Shown here: one piece after another, positions 1 to 17,733 of the stretch | Numbering within the stretch: position 1 is the first letter of the stretch | Layout of the letters: every line of letters begins with the position of its first letter | Virus record (IMG/VR): IMGVR_UViG_3300014292_000013 | Span: 1-17,733 of that record | DNA length: 17,733 nucleotides | Source: a virus | Reading direction: 5' to 3' (one strand) | Program-made: the position numbers and the translations under genes | Notes under the pieces: generated by a model | Told to the model about the DNA's origin: nothing | Seen by the model: only the letters and a program-made list of their open reading frames with translations | Databases searched by the model: none

Positions 1-1791
1 AAAGCCACTGCACGAGATGCCATTGCAATTGGCGGTAATGTGAAAGAACCTGGTGATACTCTAGCTACTCAAAAAACAACTGCATCTGGTAGACAATCCA
101 TCGCTCTTGGATATAAAGCAAATTCTAAAGGCGTTTCCGGAATTTCTATTGGTACTAATGCTTATTCTGAAGGAAGAGGTGCTGTTAGTATTGGTAGCTG
201 GTCTATTGCATCTGGAGATGGTGCAACAGCAGTAGGCGGAGGTAATGCTGGAGCAGATAGAGCCGTTGTTGTTGGTTCTGGGAATGCAGATGGTAAAGAA
301 TCTGTTTCTGTGGGGTCATATTCAAGAGTATACGCTGAAGGTGCTGTTGGTATTGGCAGAAATGTTTTTATTGATGATAGTGCAACAAACTCTGTTGTTA
401 TTGGCTCTTCCTCTGAGACAATTAGTAAAAAGAATGTGACAGCTATCGGTTCCAATACATATTCTGAAGTTGAAAATAGTGTAGCACTCGGAACATCGGC
501 AAGAGCAGATGAAGTAGTTTCTACTAGCTCTGCGAATATTGCTGGTAAAACATATAATTTTGCGGGTAAAACAGCTGATGGTACAGTAAGTATTGGTGGT
601 AAAATTATATCTGGTTATGAAACAGATAGATACGGAATACCTATCTTCGATGATAATGGTAATATGATTCCTATAGTTGATAAAACTGCTTATCGCACTA
701 TCACAAATGTAGCTGCTGGTCGTATCTCCGATACTTCCACCGATGCAGTTAATGGTAGTCAATTGAATGCAGCTATTAAAGGTATTGATAAGAATCATCA
801 AGATATTGTAGATACTGCAAAAGGTCTACAAATGCTAGGTGACGTTGTAGCAGACCATGAAGTAGCGATTGCTGCTAATAAACAATCAGCAGCTGATGCT
901 ATGGCAGAAGCTAAAAAGCATACAAGCGTTGTTGCTGGTGACAATGTAGCTGTTACAACTGGTACAAATACAGCTAATGGTAAAAAATATACTGTATCTG
1001 TTAAAAAAGACCTTACAGATATGAATTCTATTAACTTCGGTGCCAATACTGATTCTAAACATTCTATTACAAATAAAGATGGTATGCATGTATTCAATGG
1101 TGAAGTAAATACTAATTATGATTCTAATGGTATTAAAATTGAAAATACTAATACTTTAGAAACTGCTCAATATACTATGAATGGTATGCAAGCTTCTGAT
1201 GATAATGCTACTATTCGTTTCACTACTACAAATATTGATGCTGGCAATCAACAAATTCATGGTGTTAAAGCTGGTACAGCTAATACCGATGCTGTTAATG
1301 TAAGCCAACTTAAAGAAGTAGGAAATAAAGTTAATGATAACTCTGGTCGTATTAACAGAAACGAAAATCGTATCAATGATTTAGATAATAAAATTAATGA
1401 TGTTGGTCGTAATGCTTTAGAACGTGCTAATCATTATACAGATTTGCAAGTCAATAAAGGCGTAGCTAAAGCGTCTGCTCTTGCTGGTTTAAAATTCTTA
1501 GATTATAATCCTAAAGATAAATGGTCCTTCGCAGCGAGCGTAGGCCATTACCGTAATGCTAATGCGGTTGCCGTAGGTGCCGCATACCAACCTAATGAAA
1601 ACACTATGGTTCATGGTGGTATTACAGTAGATGGTAAAATAGCATACAATTTAGGTGTAAGTGTTAAAGTTGGCGGTCAAAAATATATTAATAAATATAA
1701 ATTGGCTGAACAAGTTAAACAATTACAATCTGATAATGCAGAATTACGTCAAGAATTAGCTGAATTGCGTTCTATGATTGAAAAGCGATAA
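1..1791 (+). CDS. Trimeric autotransporter adhesin (YadA-like), 5'-truncated by the window edge
   Basis: Frame 1 is open from nt 1 (KATARDAIAIGGN...), so the gene starts upstream. It has repetitive G-rich head repeats (SIALG, SIGT, VSIGS, AVGG) and neck/stalk motifs (DAVNGSQLNAA, DAVNVSQLKEV). A C-terminal YadA-type membrane anchor is present (ALAGLKFLDYNPKDKWSFAASVGHYRNANAVAVGAAYQPNENTMVHGGITVDG...). An extra heptad-like tail of about 40 aa follows the anchor. Confidence 0.85.
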   Translation, partial: KATARDAIAIGGNVKEPGDTLATQKTTASGRQSIALGYKANSKGVSGISIGTNAYSEGRGAVSIGSWSIASGDGATAVGGGNAGADRAVVVGSGNADGKESVSVGSYSRVYAEGAVGIGRNVFIDDSATNSVVIGSSSETISKKNVTAIGSNTYSEVENSVALGTSARADEVVSTSSANIAGKTYNFAGKTADGTVSIGGKIISGYETDRYGIPIFDDNGNMIPIVDKTAYRTITNVAAGRISDTSTDAVNGSQLNAAIKGIDKNHQDIVDTAKGLQMLGDVVADHEVAIAANKQSAADAMAEAKKHTSVVAGDNVAVTTGTNTANGKKYTVSVKKDLTDMNSINFGANTDSKHSITNKDGMHVFNGEVNTNYDSNGIKIENTNTLETAQYTMNGMQASDDNATIRFTTTNIDAGNQQIHGVKAGTANTDAVNVSQLKEVGNKVNDNSGRINRNENRINDLDNKINDVGRNALERANHYTDLQVNKGVAKASALAGLKFLDYNPKDKWSFAASVGHYRNANAVAVGAAYQPNENTMVHGGITVDGKIAYNLGVSVKVGGQKYINKYKLAEQVKQLQSDNAELRQELAELRSMIEKR

Positions 1792-2228: not shown

Positions 2229-2849
2229 GTGGAACAAGAATTAATTTTTTCCAGTAGAAATGGCATTTTACATAAACGTCCTAGGTTAACTAAATTAACA
2301 GAGGCTCGTAAAAAAGCTGGTTATAATAATCAACGAAAAATTGCTAAAGAATTAAAAATTACACAAACAGAATATTGTTCTTATGAGTCTGGTAAAAAAG
2401 AAATGCCAGAACGAATTGCAAAAAGAATTTCTACGCTTTTAAACATGCCAATTGATGAAGTTACTTCTGTTAATTATCAAAATGAAAAATTAACAAAAGA
2501 TGCAACAAAAGTATTGGAAAAAATGTTTAAAATGCTGGGTGAATTAGAATTATGGCAACTTGATGAATTAGATAAAACTGTAACTAATATGAGTCTTATG
2601 AATGGTGTCATGAAGTATAGAAAAATGTTACAAAGAAATCGTAGAAAATTCAGAAAAAATGCTAAGGAATTAAAAGAAATTAAAATTAATAGAAATGATT
2701 TTACGCTTTTATTTTCTGATACTATTGATATGAAAGAAATATCTAACATATCTATTCATTATGAAACAATGTTAACTTTGATTGAATATGGTTTATTGCC
2801 AGAAAATCAATTAAAGGATTTCATTAAATATTTTAATATTATTAAATAA
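2229..2849 (+). CDS. XRE-family helix-turn-helix transcriptional regulator with a C-terminal domain of unknown function
   Basis: The N-terminal segment LTKLTEARKKAGYNNQRKIAKELKITQTEYCSYESGKKEMPERIAKRISTLLNM fits the HTH_XRE pattern. It uses a GTG start preceded by AGAGG. Confidence 0.75.
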   Translation: MEQELIFSSRNGILHKRPRLTKLTEARKKAGYNNQRKIAKELKITQTEYCSYESGKKEMPERIAKRISTLLNMPIDEVTSVNYQNEKLTKDATKVLEKMFKMLGELELWQLDELDKTVTNMSLMNGVMKYRKMLQRNRRKFRKNAKELKEIKINRNDFTLLFSDTIDMKEISNISIHYETMLTLIEYGLLPENQLKDFIKYFNIIK

Positions 2850-2885
2850 CTATATTTTTAAAGTAGACAAAAAGGAGAAAAGAAA

Positions 2886-3050
2886 ATGAACAAAGTATTT
2901 GAATTGGTAGGCCGTGCAGTTATCGGCGGGATTATTGGTTTTGCAGTTGGGTATGTAACCCAAACTGCAATTAACGGTGGTTTGGCTAATAATGTGAAAG
3001 CAGACGTTAAGGGTTTTAAGAAATTGGTCAAAGACACAATTAATGCGTAA
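2886..3050 (+). CDS. Small glycine-zipper membrane protein (54 aa)
   Basis: An AAAGGAG RBS lies 8 nt upstream of the ATG. The product is MNKVFELVGRAVIGGIIGFAVGYVTQTAINGGLANNVKADVKGFKKLVKDTINA. It is below the ORF-track size cut-off. Confidence 0.5.
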   Translation: MNKVFELVGRAVIGGIIGFAVGYVTQTAINGGLANNVKADVKGFKKLVKDTINA

Positions 3051-3056
3051 GCGAAA

Positions 3057-3074
3057 CCTTGTATAATATTGGTG
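3057..3074 (+). promoter_or_regulatory. Conserved promoter-like motif, copy 3 (CCTTGTATAATATTGGTG)
   Basis: Perfect TATAAT at 3062-3067. It sits immediately upstream of the ORF-free structured region. Confidence 0.6.
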
Positions 3075-3567
3075 AAATGCCTTAGTTAAGTTATTCGTCG
3101 CATTGCGGTTTAATTTAATTAAGGCTTTCATATATGTTGAAGGTCGGCATCGAACCTTCTGGGGCAAGCTGAGACTTGCGAATAATTGCGGTATTTGGAG
3201 GAAAGCTAAGTCATAAAGATATGTGAACTCCACTGAAGGCTATATGTAATAGTGTAGTCAAGTGTCCAATGGATTGAAACTCATTAGAGAATATAATATC
3301 CTAAAAGACCGCAACTTCCATTAGCGACGATACTAATGTTGAAGAAGTAGTGGACTACCCTATCGAAAGATAGGGACTATAACTTATATTGGCGGATTGC
3401 GTTGAGGTCGAAATACCTTTCATAATCATAAGTAAATTAATAGTAGACGTAAGAGCTACCATCCGCCAATATTTCATGGGCTTAGTAGAGAAAAAAAACT
3501 GGTGCAACTCCAGAAAAGCCCTGAAATACTATTATCGTAATTTAGGTGTTCCAACGGTTCCGGAATG
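3075..3567 (+). ncRNA. Large structured non-coding RNA candidate (about 0.5 kb), class unknown
   Basis: There is no credible ORF, and the region is visibly richer in G+C than its neighbours. Helices read by eye: 3074-3089/3115-3129 (15 bp); 3139-3144/3154-3159; 3164-3168/3175-3179; a GAAA-tetraloop hairpin at 3358-3364/3369-3375; a 12-bp helix at 3386-3397/3461-3472; and 3478-3483/3516-3521. A nested long-range complementarity pairs 3095-3108 with 3309-3330. Confidence 0.5.
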
Positions 3568-3585
3568 CCTTGTACGATAATGGTG
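3568..3585 (+). promoter_or_regulatory. Conserved promoter-like motif, copy 4 (CCTTGTACGATAATGGTG)
   Basis: Same length and flanks as the other copies. The hexamer is degenerate (TACGAT, or GATAAT shifted by 3). It lies 147 nt upstream of ssb. Confidence 0.45.
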
Positions 3586-3731
3586 AGTGAAATCATTTAG
3601 TCATTCATACCTGTTTGTATAAGGAAATGGTATTGGCAATGATAAAAAGAAGAGTAACTCAAATTTTTTAATTATAAGATAAAAGTTTTAAGTCCTCTAG
3701 TCAGATAGTAGAGGCAAAATAAGGAGTAATT

Positions 3732-4163
3732 ATGAACAACTTTAGTTTAATCAAAGGGTACGTATCCCGCAAAACAACTACTTTCCATCCAGCACGTGAT
3801 GGTAAAAAAGCTGTATTTAGCACAACTATCGCAGTAGCAACTGGCACAGTTGATGGCGAAGGTAAGAAAGTATATAACTGGGTACCAGTTAAATCCTTCG
3901 GTAAAACAGCTGAATTGATGAATGAAAATCTTGTTGGTGGTGATTACACAGAAATCACTGGTCGTTTGGGTATGAACCCACGTTATACCAATAAGAAAGG
4001 CGAAACAGTTTATGAAACTTGTTTCTTGGTAGCAACACAATTCTCTCGTTTGACTCAACGCGAAACTCCAAAAGCAACTGAAGTAGCTCAAGAAGAAGTT
4101 GAAAACTTTGCAGGAGCACCAGAAGTGTTCGGCGAAGAATTAGAAGGTGCAACAATTTTTTAA
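3732..4163 (+). CDS. ssb: Single-stranded DNA-binding protein
   Basis: The OB-fold pattern is present (NNFSLIKGYV..., AVFSTTIAV, WVPVKSFGKTAELMNENLVGGDYTEITGRLGMNPRYTNKKGETVYETCFLVA). The C-terminal tail is acidic and ends in ...EELEGATIF. The RBS is a strong AAGGAG. Confidence 0.75.
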   Translation: MNNFSLIKGYVSRKTTTFHPARDGKKAVFSTTIAVATGTVDGEGKKVYNWVPVKSFGKTAELMNENLVGGDYTEITGRLGMNPRYTNKKGETVYETCFLVATQFSRLTQRETPKATEVAQEEVENFAGAPEVFGEELEGATIF

Positions 4164-4184
4164 TTTAATTTAAACTAACATAAG

Positions 4185-4240
4185 AAAAATCATACATGAA
4201 CCACTGGCGTGAAGAGATGTATGATTTTTCTTTTTTTTGT
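4185..4240 (+). terminator. Rho-independent terminator after ssb
   Basis: The stem AAAATCATACAT/ATGTATGATTTT pairs 4185-4197 with 4217-4229. CTTTTTTTT follows. Confidence 0.7.
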
Positions 4241-4270
4241 TTTTTAACTTGAGTTAAAAAATATTTTTAG

Positions 4271-4299
4271 TTGAAATTAAAAAACAAAAGTGTTATAAC
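4271..4299 (+). promoter_or_regulatory. Sigma70-type promoter (TTGAAA, 17-nt spacer, TGtTATAAC)
   Basis: -35 TTGAAA at 4271-4276. The extended -10 has TG at 4291-4292 and TATAAC at 4294-4299. Confidence 0.5.
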
Positions 4300-4326
4300 A
4301 TTTTTTTAACGAAAGGAATTTTAATT

Positions 4327-4713
4327 ATGAAAGAAAATTATTCATTAGAAGAAATCGTAGAAACATTAGCTAAATTTAAAGAAGTTATGAATTATGTGCG
4401 TCAAAATCATGGCGTATGGGACAGCACTGTACAAGAATGTGATAAAGCATTTGGTGATATTCGTCATTATTGTGAACTACAATATCCTACACAACGTAGA
4501 GATAAAACAAAAGTAGTTCGTTTAATTCATGATTTTTCTGTTAAACGTCGTGAATGTAAAGATTATCTTGAAGTCTTGGCTCCATTATTTGAAAGTAATT
4601 TGGTTGAAGAAAAACAATTGATGAATGTCAATCGTATTATTAATCAAATTAAAAAGAACCAAGAGAAAAATCGTGCGTATAAACCTCGTGTATTAGAAGA
4701 TTTATTTAAGTAA
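4327..4713 (+). CDS. Hypothetical phage protein (128 aa)
   Basis: Long ORF with the RBS context TTAACGAAAGGA 9 nt upstream of the ATG. No family recognised. Confidence 0.7.
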   Translation: MKENYSLEEIVETLAKFKEVMNYVRQNHGVWDSTVQECDKAFGDIRHYCELQYPTQRRDKTKVVRLIHDFSVKRRECKDYLEVLAPLFESNLVEEKQLMNVNRIINQIKKNQEKNRAYKPRVLEDLFK

Positions 4714-5947: not shown

Positions 5948-6289
5948 ATGAAAAAACTTATTGAATTAGAACCTGGAGTTTTAAGTGCCGAAAATTTTTT
6001 ATATCAATTACAAACATGTAAAAATGTTGTACTTGAAAATGGATACGATGAAAATTTTTATATTAAAAATGTATATGTTCCTAAAAATTTTAAAGAAGAA
6101 CGTACAATTTTGTTTAGCATAAATTTTTGGCGTAAAGATATACAATATCAAAGCCATGCTGTATATACACCAGTATGTATTGAATATTCAATAAATTTAG
6201 AAACTAATCTAATTTCTTGCACAGATAATAATGCTCCATTAGGTGCAGAATTGTTAAGTAAATTAATCAACGAAGTAATCCTTGTATAA
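5948..6289 (+). CDS. Hypothetical phage protein (113 aa)
   Basis: ORF with an AGAGGAG RBS. Its last codons overlap motif copy 5. Confidence 0.7.
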   Translation: MKKLIELEPGVLSAENFLYQLQTCKNVVLENGYDENFYIKNVYVPKNFKEERTILFSINFWRKDIQYQSHAVYTPVCIEYSINLETNLISCTDNNAPLGAELLSKLINEVILV

Positions 6290-11076: not shown

Positions 11077-11355
11077 ATGACCTATACAGGAAAAATGAAT
11101 AAGAGTTTTATTGATGACATTGCAAGTTCTATTAATCGTGTCATTCGTGAAACATCTTTTCGAAGCCAAACAAAATCTAAAAAAAAGAATTTAGATATTA
11201 CATTTAGTTTCAGTGATTTATCTGAGCCAAAAAAAGAATTGTTGTTATTAACAATTCGTAAGATTAAAGATATGAAAGAGGAAGATGTATTATTCTTTAT
11301 TGATTCTATTAATCAATGCGAAAAAGAAAGAGGTACGTACAATGAATATCGTTGA
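11077..11355 (+). CDS. Hypothetical phage protein (92 aa)
   Basis: The ATG at 11077 has an AGAGGA RBS. The track start at 10993 lies inside the promoter/terminator region and was rejected. Confidence 0.6.
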   Translation: MTYTGKMNKSFIDDIASSINRVIRETSFRSQTKSKKKNLDITFSFSDLSEPKKELLLLTIRKIKDMKEEDVLFFIDSINQCEKERGTYNEYR

Positions 11356-15624: not shown

Positions 15625-15700
15625 AGCGGAGTAGAGCAGTTGGTAGCTCATCGGGCTCATAACCCGAAGGTCACAAGTTCAAATCTTGTCTCCGCAACCA
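15625..15700 (+). tRNA. Initiator-type tRNA-fMet (anticodon CAU), CCA encoded
   Basis: It closely resembles the E. coli initiator tRNA as recalled from memory. The anticodon stem TCGGG/CCCGA carries three consecutive G-C pairs next to the loop CTCATAA. Positions 1 and 72 are unpaired (A1 x A72). The 3' end is ...CTCCGCAACCA. Confidence 0.85.
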
Positions 15701-16427: not shown

Positions 16428-16973
16428 ATGTGGAAAATTACAGATAATGATGTACAACGTATGGCATTAGATGCTCAAGGTAAGATTAATAAAATCTATG
16501 TCCATTGGACAGCTGGTCATTACAACCAAACATTTGGTGATTATCATATTAATATCACTGGTGATGGTTCTATGTATACAGATACAGACGATTTTACAGA
16601 AGTAAAAAATCATACGTATCGTAGAAACACAGGTGCTATTGGTATTGGTGTATGTTGTGCATATGGTGCAACTGGACAAAATAATTTAGGTCCAGAACCT
16701 CCTACTCAAGCTCAATTAACACAAGTAACTCGTGTGATTGCTATGTTATGTATTGATTTGGGTTTACCAGATGATATTCAACATGTGCTTACTCACGCTG
16801 AGGCAGCTGATAATAAAGACGGCTGGTATGCACATGAACCATACGGTCCAGATTCTACAGTAGAGCGCTGGGACTTTGATGTTGTACATGAAGGTGATGA
16901 ACCACGTTCTGGTGGTGCATGGCTTCGTGGTACTGCAAGATGGCATGGAGCTCAATGGGGTTCTAGCATCTAA
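16428..16973 (+). CDS. Endolysin, N-acetylmuramoyl-L-alanine amidase (Amidase_2/PGRP, T7-lysozyme-like)
   Basis: Amidase_2-type zinc-ligand context: IYVHWTAGHY...GDYHI...NTGAIGIGVC...VLTHAE. Confidence 0.8.
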   Translation: MWKITDNDVQRMALDAQGKINKIYVHWTAGHYNQTFGDYHINITGDGSMYTDTDDFTEVKNHTYRRNTGAIGIGVCCAYGATGQNNLGPEPPTQAQLTQVTRVIAMLCIDLGLPDDIQHVLTHAEAADNKDGWYAHEPYGPDSTVERWDFDVVHEGDEPRSGGAWLRGTARWHGAQWGSSI

Positions 16974-16987
16974 CATTATGTAATAAG

Positions 16988-17032
16988 AAAAGACCTTTTG
17001 TTTTTTGTTAAAGAGATAAAAGGTCTTTTTTT
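16988..17032 (+). terminator. Rho-independent terminator after the endolysin
   Basis: A 12-bp stem AAAAGACCTTTT/AAAAGGTCTTTT pairs 16988-16999 with 17018-17029. The T-run continues to 17032. Confidence 0.75.
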
Positions 17033-17051
17033 AATACATAATTTTTGATAG

Positions 17052-17088
17052 TTGACAAAACTATTGAAAACCTTGTATTATATTGGTG
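17052..17088 (+). promoter_or_regulatory. Promoter: TTGACA, 18-nt spacer, conserved motif copy 7 (CCTTGTATTATATTGGTG)
   Basis: Perfect -35 at 17052-17057. The motif spans 17071-17088 with its TATTAT hexamer at 17076-17081. Confidence 0.65.
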
Positions 17089-17733
17089 TGGGCATTTCGT
17101 TTCTCCCCCCTAGAAATGCTCGCATATTCACTCCTATAGGATATAGATAGACAGATTGAACTCCTTTCAAATAAATAAACACATATAAATTGTACGGAAA
17201 TAATAAAAAAAATTTTAACCTCCCTGTTAAAATAAAGACTCGTAGAAATAAATACAAACAACAAGATAATTCACCTTTCTTTAAAATAAGATTCTCACAA
17301 TGATAACTTATAACCGTGGGGCACACGGGGATAGCCTATCGCCTGATTGTAAGACTTTTTGAAATAATAAAAAAGCAAATCTTTGGGTAGGAACCTCATG
17401 ATTTTGAATCATAAGAGGGTGCCAGAATGCGTCTGTCTGTCTATATCCAACACATGTTCTTGTAGTTCAATTAGAATACCTTTAACTTCAAAGGAGATTT
17501 ACGTTAAAGTCGTAACGAGAGCATTAATTATTATATTAGGGTTTTACTTTTCCCCTGCATCGATATTACATGTTTATACTTTTTGAGATGTTTTAATAAG
17601 CATAGGTATAATATCCAGTTACGTTTTTAATGTACGAGTGTGAGATGCGAATAATCGAAGAGCATAAAATATCTTAGAGGCCCAGCTGGTGGAAGGCCAG
17701 CATACTTGCTCGTGTGGCGAAATTGGAAAACGC
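17089..17733 (+). ncRNA. Large structured non-coding RNA candidate (at least 0.65 kb, 3' end beyond the window)
   Basis: No credible ORF is present. A 5' hairpin pairs 17090-17098 with 17113-17121 and has the C-rich loop TCTCCCCCC. Hairpin 17156-17160/17166-17170 has the loop CTCCT. Hairpin 17213-17219/17226-17232 has the loop CTCCCT. An 18-bp long-range helix joins 17139-17156 to 17431-17448 (16 Watson-Crick and 2 G-U pairs). Further hairpins are 17314-17318/17324-17328 and 17685-17689/17697-17701. Confidence 0.5.

Follow-up and report, generated by a model that had tools for sequence, protein, structure and literature searches.

What does a phage encode in a stretch of its tRNA region that begins with a promoter and contains no convincing gene? 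The question is raised by positions 17052-17733 (+ strand) of an uncultured phage, about 235 kb in size, found in human metagenomes. All coordinates given without a contig name are positions in the window, i.e., the whole stretch of 17,733 nucleotides (nt) that was analysed. An earlier note had described 17052-17733 as a single RNA of at least 0.65 kb, truncated by the window and reminiscent of the large ROOL and GOLLD RNAs. We find that it is a modular non-coding stretch, made up of five adjacent features. We propose that its leader, which lies between a promoter (P1) and a tRNA-like element, is most likely a conserved and previously undescribed phage RNA, predicted to be tRNA-linked and to be released by RNase P. 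The features on which this proposal is built are as follows:

17052-17081, + strand: promoter P1, with TTGACA (17052-17057), an 18-nt spacer and TATTAT (17076-17081); 11/12 consensus matches
17088-17123, + strand: 5' hairpin H1, 11 bp (17088-17098 with 17113-17123) around the 14-nt C-rich loop GUUUCUCCCCCCUA, in both the minimum-free-energy (MFE) and the centroid folds
17139-17156, + strand: 5' arm of the long-range helix H2, GGATATAGATAGACAGAT, pairing with 17431-17448
17431-17448, + strand: 3' arm of H2, GTCTGTCTGTCTATATCC, ending 7 nt before the tRNA-like element
17456-17523, + strand: tRNA-like element, scoring 34.1 bits with the Rfam tRNA model (RF00005; gathering score 29) under permissive filters

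Sequences compared and organisation of the stretch

The relatives were retrieved through the upstream amidase gene and with exact patterns from the region, the public collections being scanned with exact patterns only. INPHARED (50,697 deposited phage genomes) gave no match, whether the query was the region or the whole window and whether the search mode was near or distant. The relatives are IMG/VR contigs, metagenome contigs and one contig (L030) of a metagenome-assembled genome (MAG) labelled 'uncultured Gemella sp.', this label being the sole hint of a host. As the longest relatives measure 231-235 kb, they point to a jumbo-size phage of human-associated samples. Clade A comprises the window, L002, L005/L029, L022, L024, L001, L003 and L004, with 93-100% identity in the region; clade B comprises L006, L007, L008, L023 and L030 (about 71-85% identity), and clade C comprises L015, L016 and L025, which can be aligned in parts only. 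One clade B contig, L007, resembles clade B upstream of the tRNA-like element and clade A downstream of it (positions 4122-4414; 85% vs. 71% identity to the window), a switch of affinity, not shared by L006 and L008, that suggests recombination inside this intergenic stretch.

The anatomy of the stretch, its conservation, its strand bias, the identity of an insertion that it carries and its lack of coding potential can be read directly. The longest open reading frames (ORFs), of 67 and 82 amino acids (aa), are on the minus strand and are broken and frame-shifted in clade B, 11-nt and 4-nt indels separating clades A and B, and no ORF of at least 20 aa common to the clades was found on either strand. 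All window ORFs of at least 100 aa that do not overlap a longer + strand ORF are on the + strand. The earlier view of a non-coding stretch with a + strand promoter, probably transcribed, thus stands, and so does the absence of a believable ORF in the sense that no ORF is conserved between clades; the stretch is nevertheless not empty, since it holds the tRNA-like element, a second promoter-like site (P2) and the start of a tRNA-Leu gene.

The idea of one large RNA fared less well. First, the window does not truncate such an RNA; its end cuts an ordinary tRNA-Leu gene. Second, the two 5-bp segments proposed to close a domain of about 530 nt (CGCAT/ATGCG and CACTC/GAGTG) do exist, but they are broken in all clade B sequences, and by our own estimate hundreds of 5-bp complementarities are expected by chance in 680 nt, so that this closure carries no statistical weight. 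Third, the comparison of 16900-17733 with Rfam (cmscan, E <= 10) yielded no ROOL, GOLLD, raiA, HEARO, RsaE or RNAIII match, and the comparison of the same stretch in untruncated relatives (L002 10500-12800, L006 and L016; E <= 1) no ROOL, GOLLD, raiA or HEARO match; the sole HEARO-like match, below its gathering score, is located about 1.2 kb past the window end, before an IscB gene. The permissive Rfam matches other than the tRNA-like one, among them microRNA-type ones on the terminator palindrome and Ref70 on the transposon remnant (22 bits vs. 115), are all below their gathering scores and were treated as noise. Fourth, the conserved structure amounts to one hairpin, one long-range helix and one tRNA-like cloverleaf, not to a multi-domain fold of 500-800 nt.

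Predicted structure of the leader

The leader, whose start site we infer to be near G17088, spans 17088-17455, i.e., 368 nt in the window, and 247 nt in L002, where it runs from the equivalent of G17088 to the tRNA-like element and lacks the insertion. The view that about the first 370 nt of the stretch carry RNA-level structure is supported by the following lines of evidence. First, the z-scores of the + strand folds are -4.8 for the window (17088-17530), -5.5 for L002, -4.5 for L006 (clade B) and -4.5 for the leader of L016 (clade C), as compared with -1.1 for the minus strand of the window. Second, the G-U pairs of H1 and H2 would read as A-C mismatches on the opposite strand. Third, H1 and H2 are kept in three clades that differ in sequence. 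In clade B, H1 is a 10- to 11-bp hairpin with another stem (CCAUUGUGUG/CACAUAAUGG) and a retained C-rich loop. An RNAalifold analysis of clades A and B shows H1 pairs altered on both sides, and the substitutions that occur in H1 within clade A cluster in its loop.

H2 consists of 18 bp (16 Watson-Crick and 2 G-U) and encloses 274 nt in the window. Both this helix and the P1 promoter with its conserved motif had been reported in the earlier note, and both are found where it placed them. None of 200 dinucleotide shuffles reached 18 bp, the longest long-range helix of the shuffles having a mean of 9.7 and a maximum of 15 bp. The H2 helices of the three clades are as follows:

Clade A: 5' arm GGAUAUAGAUAGACAGAU, 3' arm GUCUGUCUGUCUAUAUCC, 18 bp, reached in 0/200 shuffles
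Clade B: 5' arm UGUGAAUAGAUAGGAG, 3' arm UUCCUAUCUAUUCACA, 16 bp, reached in 0/200 shuffles
Clade C: 5' arm GGUCAAUGUUACGU, 3' arm GCGUAACAUUGACC, 14 bp, reached in 2/200 shuffles (P = 0.01)

The three clades share the same plan, namely a promoter, a 10- to 11-bp 5' hairpin, H2 around an A/C-rich loop, and a tRNA-shaped element; in all of them H2 starts 52-62 nt from the inferred start and stops 5-8 nt before the tRNA(-like) element. What follows H2 in clades A and B is the tRNA-like sequence; in clade C its place is taken by a genuine tRNA-Met, and the tRNA-like element, located farther downstream beyond tRNA-Asp, has a strong local hairpin of 15 bp before it. The arms of H2 are single-copy in all the sequences compared, which argues that they are not transposon ends.

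Two other observations concern folding. The repeats I5 and I6 (17142-17175 vs. 17464-17496) were considered as an inverted duplicate of the tRNA-like element and rejected, as their pieces are not colinear and would cross. In clade C, a strong fold (-50.8 kcal/mol) is predicted for the 148 nt between tRNA-Glu and tRNA-Asp (L016 8300-8447), with two stem-loop domains of which the second bears a T-arm-like hairpin; this segment was assigned neither by Rfam nor by ARAGORN at default settings.

The tRNA-like element

The tRNA-like element, which is always located among tRNA genes, is the most conserved block of the region (94% mean column identity over the three clades). It scores 33.1-35.2 bits with the Rfam tRNA model in clades B and C, and a default-filter Rfam scan of the whole window returned four known tRNAs only and missed it. 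Its cloverleaf comprises a 7-bp acceptor stem, a 4-bp D stem and a 5-bp anticodon stem. Stem pairing holds in 231/231 cells over 11 distinct sequences, as compared with 36-62% in slid controls. All stem substitutions keep pairing, the eight additional pair types are all standard, and one pair is changed on both sides.

As judged from the following features, the element is not a standard (canonical, decoding) tRNA. First, its anticodon loop has only 6 nt, RACUUY (AACUUC or GACUUU), and lacks U33; the ACUU core of this loop is invariant, and A29/C34 switches jointly to G29/U34. Second, the D loop (AAUUA, 5 nt) lacks the GG pair of residues (G18G19), and the T loop (UUAAAGU) lacks C56. Third, no CCA is encoded, whereas the six standard tRNAs of these loci all encode it; the host might nevertheless add one. 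Fourth, ARAGORN reports nothing at default and calls the element only at -ps80, with a 2-base 'anticodon'. The element has a U at -1 and a G at +1 in all clades. A search of viral contigs with looser tRNA-like patterns returned the same contigs only.

The G-poor loop and its CU-rich motifs

The part of the leader enclosed by H2 upstream of the insertion comprises the following features:

17157-17304, + strand: G-poor, A/C-rich leader loop, holding the 19-mer, CCUCCCU and CACCUUUCU
17156-17170, + strand: small hairpin UUGAA/UUCAA around CUCCU (MFE fold)
17161-17179, + strand: invariant 19-mer CUCCUUUCAAAUAAAUAAA, identical in clades A and B
17212-17233, + strand: small hairpin AUUUUAAC/GUUAAAAU around CUCCCU (MFE fold)
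17219-17225, + strand: CCUCCCU, in the leader loop
17272-17280, + strand: CACCUUUCU, in the leader loop

The leader contains only 9-11% G across the clades (11% in L002, without insertion), with a negative GC skew and a positive AT skew, and the interior of H2 is about 50% unpaired. The three hairpins with CU-rich loops and the fourth CU-rich tract described previously are all present, and the CUCCU motif itself is invariant; its hairpin stem, however, is lost in clade B. The CU motifs are predicted to be unpaired at 0.55-1.0, and the density of CTCC/CCTC is 8.7-20 per kb in the leader vs. 2.2 per kb on the remaining + strand (4- to 9-fold).

These motifs are complementary to ribosome-binding sequences. 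The 19-mer, the flanks of which are about 75% identical between clades A and B, is the exact antisense of ribosome-binding regions plus the upstream U-rich tract in seven unrelated viral contigs (viral-contig scan). CUCCUUUC matches the 3' tail of 16S rRNA and reads as the exact antisense of ribosome-binding sites typical of phages. The leaders share 8-9 nt with the Bacillus-type tail (P = 0.04, 0.04 and 0.003). The genes of the phage itself carry AAGGAG/AAAGGA Shine-Dalgarno sequences. A likeness of the leader to regulators that sequester Shine-Dalgarno sequences is plausible by analogy, though statistically modest. A search for specific mRNA targets of the loop identified no conserved target; its best match is to the 5' untranslated region (UTR) of a ClpP-like gene located 5.8 kb downstream in relatives, with 17/19 complementarity to the 19-mer. 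The gene was recognised as ClpP-like by eye from its N-terminal sequence. Its 5' UTR (L002 16965-17030; also in L003, L005, L001, L004 and L029) reads UUUAUUUUUUUGAAAGGAA and sits behind another CCTTGTATTATAATGG promoter.

Promoter P1 and the phage motif

P1 overlaps the phage motif CCTTGTATTATATTGGTG, is kept in clades A and B, and bears one of the seven copies of CCTTGTATAATAWTGGTG on the + strand of the window (2041, 2179, 3057, 3568, 6280, 10981 and 17071). Only the last copy is accompanied by a TTGACA -35 element, and the CCTTGTATAATAWTGGTG copies look like a phage-specific class of promoters devoid of -35 element. P1 together with the seven + strand motif copies makes + strand transcription plausible. 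No terminator-like site was found on the + strand between 17052 and 17733. After the copy at 6280, GTGTGTCATTTCGG resembles the 5' end of the leader, GTGTGGGCATTTCG.

In L003 (10632-12330), L001 and L004, a 1.7-kb TnpB element, unrelated to the insertion described below, lies directly after the TTGAC of the P1 -35 element (window 17056/17057). It encodes an ORF of 486-509 aa (NCBIfam guided_TnpB, 101.5 bits) and its right end reads ...GGAGTGTCAG. As the first base of this element restores TTGACA, the P1 -35 element faces tnpB and the leader is deprived of it.

A recent TnpB-related insertion in the loop

An insertion makes up 121 of the 274 nt that H2 encloses in the window; an nhmmer profile of its diverged copies connected it to segments of sister genomes:

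17300-17304, + strand: TnpB target motif ATGAT, left of the insertion
17305-17425, + strand (transcription orientation): 121-nt insertion, solo right end (omega-RNA/reRNA scaffold) of an IS200/IS605-family TnpB element
L003: tnpB at 558-1661, matching segment of about 120 nt at 1667-1784
L003: truncated tnpB at 2407-3063, matching segment at 3075-3193
L002: tnpB at 2442-3674, matching segment at 3684-3806

This assignment to a solo right end is based on four points. First, the same segment occurs 3' of tnpB genes. The sister proteins carry the Pfam domains OrfB_IS605 and Cas12f1-like_TNB and score 325 bits with NCBIfam guided_TnpB (cut-off 100), which identifies them, by their sequence, as RNA-guided TnpB nucleases. 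Second, the right ends read G(A/G)TG(T/C)CAG, and homology to the window resumes exactly after CAG. Third, TGAT-type left flanks are found at the three insertion sites (TTGAT/TCGAT, CTGAT and ATGAT). Fourth, the insertion is present in four and absent from five of the nine distinct clade A sequences. It is missing from L002, L005, L029, L001 and L003, the flanks of which are 93-100% identical, and the empty site of L002 reads CACAATGAT|AATGCGTC. The insertion thus appears to have landed recently in the loop of an older RNA. The window copy is solo: no tnpB occurs in the window, and the copy lacks the scaffold part that is embedded in the ORF as well as most of the left end.

Common to the copies are a CCGUG/CACGG hairpin, a long-range GCCUA/UAGG(U) pairing and a terminal hairpin of variable sequence; their fold z-scores are only -1.7 to -3.1, and they match no Rfam model. 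We rejected the interpretation of the 119- to 121-nt insertion as a promoter-driven small RNA gene or as a two-ended miniature inverted-repeat transposable element, since its 'promoter' is, in the other copies, the 3' end of tnpB ORFs. Comparison of the insertion with the 1.7-kb TnpB element and with the IscB/HEARO region detected no similarity beyond the terminal GTGYCAG.

A transcript of the remnant that might serve a sister TnpB as a guide against the empty site would end in ...GGGUGCCAG, followed by AAUGCGUCUGUCUGUC. The would-be guide AAUGCGUCUGUCUGUCUAUA (window 17426-17445) coincides with the 3' arm of H2, and it would thus be sequestered in H2 if the remnant were co-transcribed with the leader. 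TnpB elements also mark break points of colinearity (window 9552/9553 and 10229/10230; L003 1947-3193; L002 about 2440-3806), one of these elements carrying a truncated tnpB and one being inserted directly before the ATG at window 9553. An IscB gene (L002 12401-13907; 412 aa; Pfam RRXRR and HNH) lies about 1.2-2.7 kb past the equivalent of the window end, downstream of tRNA-Asn, and the HEARO (omega-RNA) match before it is weak (32.7 bits vs. a gathering score of 83). The TnpB and IscB findings together suggest that both types of element are carried by these phages.

P2 and the tRNA-Leu unit

The tRNA-like element is followed by three further features:

17583-17612, + strand: second promoter-like site P2, with TTGAGA, an 18-nt spacer and TATAAT; 11/12 consensus matches
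17619-17707, + strand: short tRNA-Leu leader, with a conserved hairpin GCUGGU-GGAAG-GCCAGC at 17685-17701
17708-17733, + strand: first 26 nt of tRNA-Leu (anticodon UAG), identified with ARAGORN and Rfam in untruncated relatives

Clades A and B share an invariant P2 core, GAGATGTTTTA, which reads GATATTTTA in clade C. The hairpin of the tRNA-Leu leader occurs in clade C too, where a U run comes after it but no tRNA. The fold z-score of this short leader is -0.9 in the window (not significant) and -4.3 in clade C. The intact tRNA-Leu(UAG) of L002 is at 11160-11246 (59.9 bits).

Proposed pathway and competing explanations

We propose a composite explanation in which a leader driven by P1 is released by RNase P and pairs, through its end-locked loop, with the ribosome-binding regions of mRNAs; we give it a probability of about 0.45. 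P1 would drive the synthesis of a leader RNA of about 250 nt (368 nt here, owing to the TnpB right end). RNase P would then cut at the 5' end of the tRNA(-like) element, thereby releasing the leader as a discrete RNA, the 5' end of which would be protected by H1 and the new 3' end by the closing helix H2. H2 would hold open a G-poor and largely single-stranded loop of 150-260 nt that displays the CU motifs, and this loop would most likely act by pairing with purine-rich ribosome-binding regions in mRNAs of the host or of the phage. The tRNA-like element would serve mainly as a processing handle, whereas P2, the short leader and tRNA-Leu would form a separate downstream unit. As there is no intervening terminator, read-through from P1 into tRNA-Leu is possible, and the primary transcript may exceed 0.65 kb, as a multi-part precursor. 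An RNA of the external transcribed spacer (ETS) type is supported by the co-linearity, in the three clades, of the leader with the tRNA(-like) element, with no terminator or promoter between them.

The following points weigh against this pathway. First, the transcription, the RNA ends, the processing and the trans-acting function are all deduced from sequence, and only three lineages are available. Second, RNAalifold, applied to the MAFFT alignment of clades A and B, missed H2, although it recovered the tRNA-like element and a part of H1. The H2 arms of clades A and B differ partly by a register slip in an (ATAG)n-like repeat, and with such arms and three lineages no column-wise covariation statistic can be computed for this helix. 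Third, the length inside H2 is poorly conserved (148-260 nt). Fourth, the TnpB remnant sits in the loop of four of the nine distinct clade A sequences at no apparent cost, and another TnpB element parts the -35 from the -10 element of P1 in three clade A sequences, so that the locus appears to tolerate disruption. Fifth, the CTCC/CCTC enrichment is largely compositional when judged against dinucleotide shuffles (P = 0.03-0.17), and the match to the 5' UTR of the ClpP-like gene (E about 0.04) is of low complexity and unconvincing. Sixth, the 19-mer could be the relic ribosome-binding site of a former minus-strand gene, since the minus strand of clade B carries, 8 nt after it, an ATG with a 52-codon ORF, while clade A has neither that start codon nor that frame.

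Most of the weight that the composite explanation leaves goes to a purely cis-acting role, in which the stretch would be a plain 5' leader or spacer of the phage tRNA operon. H1 and H2 would then serve folding, stability or processing by RNase III and RNase P, the leader would be degraded afterwards, and the CU motifs would be a by-product of the G-poor composition. We regard this possibility as unlikely, if worth serious attention. The clade C architecture, which directly precedes real tRNA genes (Met, Glu and Asp), speaks in its favour, as do the weakness of the CU enrichment against shuffles, the tolerance of transposon insertions and the lack of an intrinsic terminator that would define a separate RNA. 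It accounts poorly for the invariance of the 19-mer between flanks that are conserved at about 75% only, and for the situation in clades A and B, where the leader precedes only a non-canonical tRNA-like element, i.e., no obvious tRNA cargo. Furthermore, a 250-nt leader with a conserved end-locking structure would be, to our knowledge, unusually elaborate for a tRNA leader.

We consider it improbable that the functional product is the tRNA-like element itself, acting as a decoy or antidote to host defences that target tRNAs, or as a non-standard decoder (reading doublets through its 6-nt loop), with the upstream RNA as its precursor leader. Such a role would fit the outstanding conservation of the element, its fully pairing-preserving stem changes, the invariant ACUU, the joint A29/C34 change and its location among tRNAs; it fits badly with the lack of the canonical elbow (G18G19 and C56), of U33 and of the encoded CCA that the six standard tRNAs possess.

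Slightly lower still do we rate the possibility that the stretch is decaying intergenic DNA without RNA function, a landing pad for TnpB/IscB elements in which relic starts of minus-strand genes explain the Shine-Dalgarno-like motifs. On the minus strand the motifs do read as good ribosome-binding sites (GAAAGGAG, AGGGAGG and AAAGGTGA), one of them preceding the ATG and the 52-codon ORF of clade B, and two different TnpB elements and an IscB element are inserted in or near the stretch. Yet the frame and the length of the minus-strand ORFs change from clade to clade, clade A lacks the start codon, and the non-overlapped ORFs of at least 100 aa are all on the + strand. Moreover, a strong + strand promoter, H1 and H2 kept with compensating changes, and folding significance restricted to the + strand would be unexpected of junk.

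We see an equally slim chance for the boldest reading, according to which the leader would represent a novel class of RNA for phage take-over, a tRNA-anchored and end-locked scaffold. Its G-depleted loop would present copies of the 16S 3' tail (CUCCUUUC(U); UCACUCUCCUUUCU in clade C). The RNA would thereby either vie with ribosomes for Shine-Dalgarno sites or sequester a factor recognising the 16S tail, and so reprogramme translation early in infection, and the tRNA-like element, with its 6-nt anticodon loop, would have an activity of its own, luring tRNA-targeting defences as a decoy or decoding in a non-triplet manner.

A DNA-level element (replication origin, recombination site or cruciform), with the inverted repeat being kept in DNA, appears very improbable. 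The interior is AT-rich (27-30% GC) and flanked by an inverted repeat, which speaks for it, but no iterons or direct-repeat arrays were found, both the G-U pairs and the asymmetric folding speak for a single RNA strand, and the position is fixed relative to the promoter and to the tRNA 5' end in all three clades. Finally, a single large ornate RNA of the ROOL/GOLLD kind, as suggested by the phage origin, the nearby tRNA genes, the ORF-free stretch and the long-range helix, can be dismissed almost entirely, since, besides the negative Rfam results and the cut tRNA-Leu, the 530-nt closure broken in clade B would span the tRNA-like element and P2, and the interior of H2 is G-poor, mostly unpaired and, over 121 nt, a recent insertion.

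Surroundings of the stretch

Two features of the upstream context are as follows:

16428-16973, + strand: amidase (endolysin-like) gene (Pfam Amidase_2)
16968-17049, + strand: terminator-type inverted repeat I1 after the amidase gene, outside the RNA, with 39-nt arms including AAAAGACCTTTT/AAAAGGTCTTTT, then a T run

Farther upstream, a tRNA-Met(CAT) at window 15625-15700, between tRNA-Tyr and tRNA-Thr, is present in the window, L002, L004, L005 and L007, and absent from L003, L006 and L008. An ORF of 583 aa (window 40-1791) encodes YadA head, stalk and anchor domains, the make-up of a trimeric autotransporter adhesin; such an ORF is unusual for a phage and fits poorly with the hint at the Gram-positive Gemella given by the MAG label of L030.

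Significance and comparison with known systems

Should the leader prove to be a stable RNA, it would be both an uncommon example of a bacteriophage non-coding RNA matured via a tRNA-like handle and a candidate phage regulator acting at ribosome-binding sites, in a little-known group of phages of about 235 kb from human metagenomes. The conserved 6-nt anticodon loop of the tRNA-like element is a small puzzle in itself. The modular reading also prevents the annotation of the stretch as one large RNA, and its omega-RNA remnant, a mobile piece, shows that TnpB elements are on the move in these phage genomes. The literature offered analogies only, and no description of this RNA was found in it.

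The closest analogies are with RNAs derived from tRNA precursors. The 3'ETS(leuZ) sponge of E. coli is a functional RNA cut from a tRNA precursor. Other RNAs derived from tRNA precursors are MALAT1/mascRNA and the tRNA-linked small RNAs of murine gammaherpesvirus 68 (PMC8457004, PMC4337559). The phage leader resembles these three systems in forming one transcript with a tRNA(-like) structure, in its presumed end generated by tRNA processing and in its nearby protective helix; it differs from them in being located 5' of the tRNA-like element and in a bacteriophage, and in having no sequence or Rfam relation to them.

The C-rich regulators of the RoxS/RsaE type pair with Shine-Dalgarno regions in Bacillota (PMC8216469). 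Like RsaE/RoxS and RNAIII, the leader has C/U-rich motifs that are predicted to be unpaired and are complementary to the ribosome-binding sites that the phage itself uses; unlike them, it is larger, tRNA-linked and devoid of intrinsic terminator, and it has no Rfam match. The likeness to TnpB omega-RNAs and IS200-IS605 right ends concerns 17305-17425 only. It consists of a segment of about 120 nt homologous to those found 3' of tnpB, the GTGYCAG end, the TGAT-type flank and the lack of target duplication, the window copy differing from them in being solo, with no tnpB. With ROOL and GOLLD the stretch has in common the phage context, the nearby tRNA genes and the absence of ORFs, whereas it matches neither covariance model, and its leader of about 250 nt has a G-poor and mostly unstructured interior instead of a multi-domain fold.

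The long-range architecture recalls the processing stalks of rRNA operons, in which long-range helices between leader and spacer are cut by RNase III. In both cases a long-range helix (14-18 bp here) brackets a segment of a stable-RNA operon located by tRNA genes, and a motif resembling the 16S tail lies near the 3' strand of the helix (in clades A and C). The bracketed segment of the phage, however, comprises 150-260 nt, is A-rich and is not rRNA, and we propose that it is instead the loop of a tRNA-linked RNA predicted to be released by RNase P.

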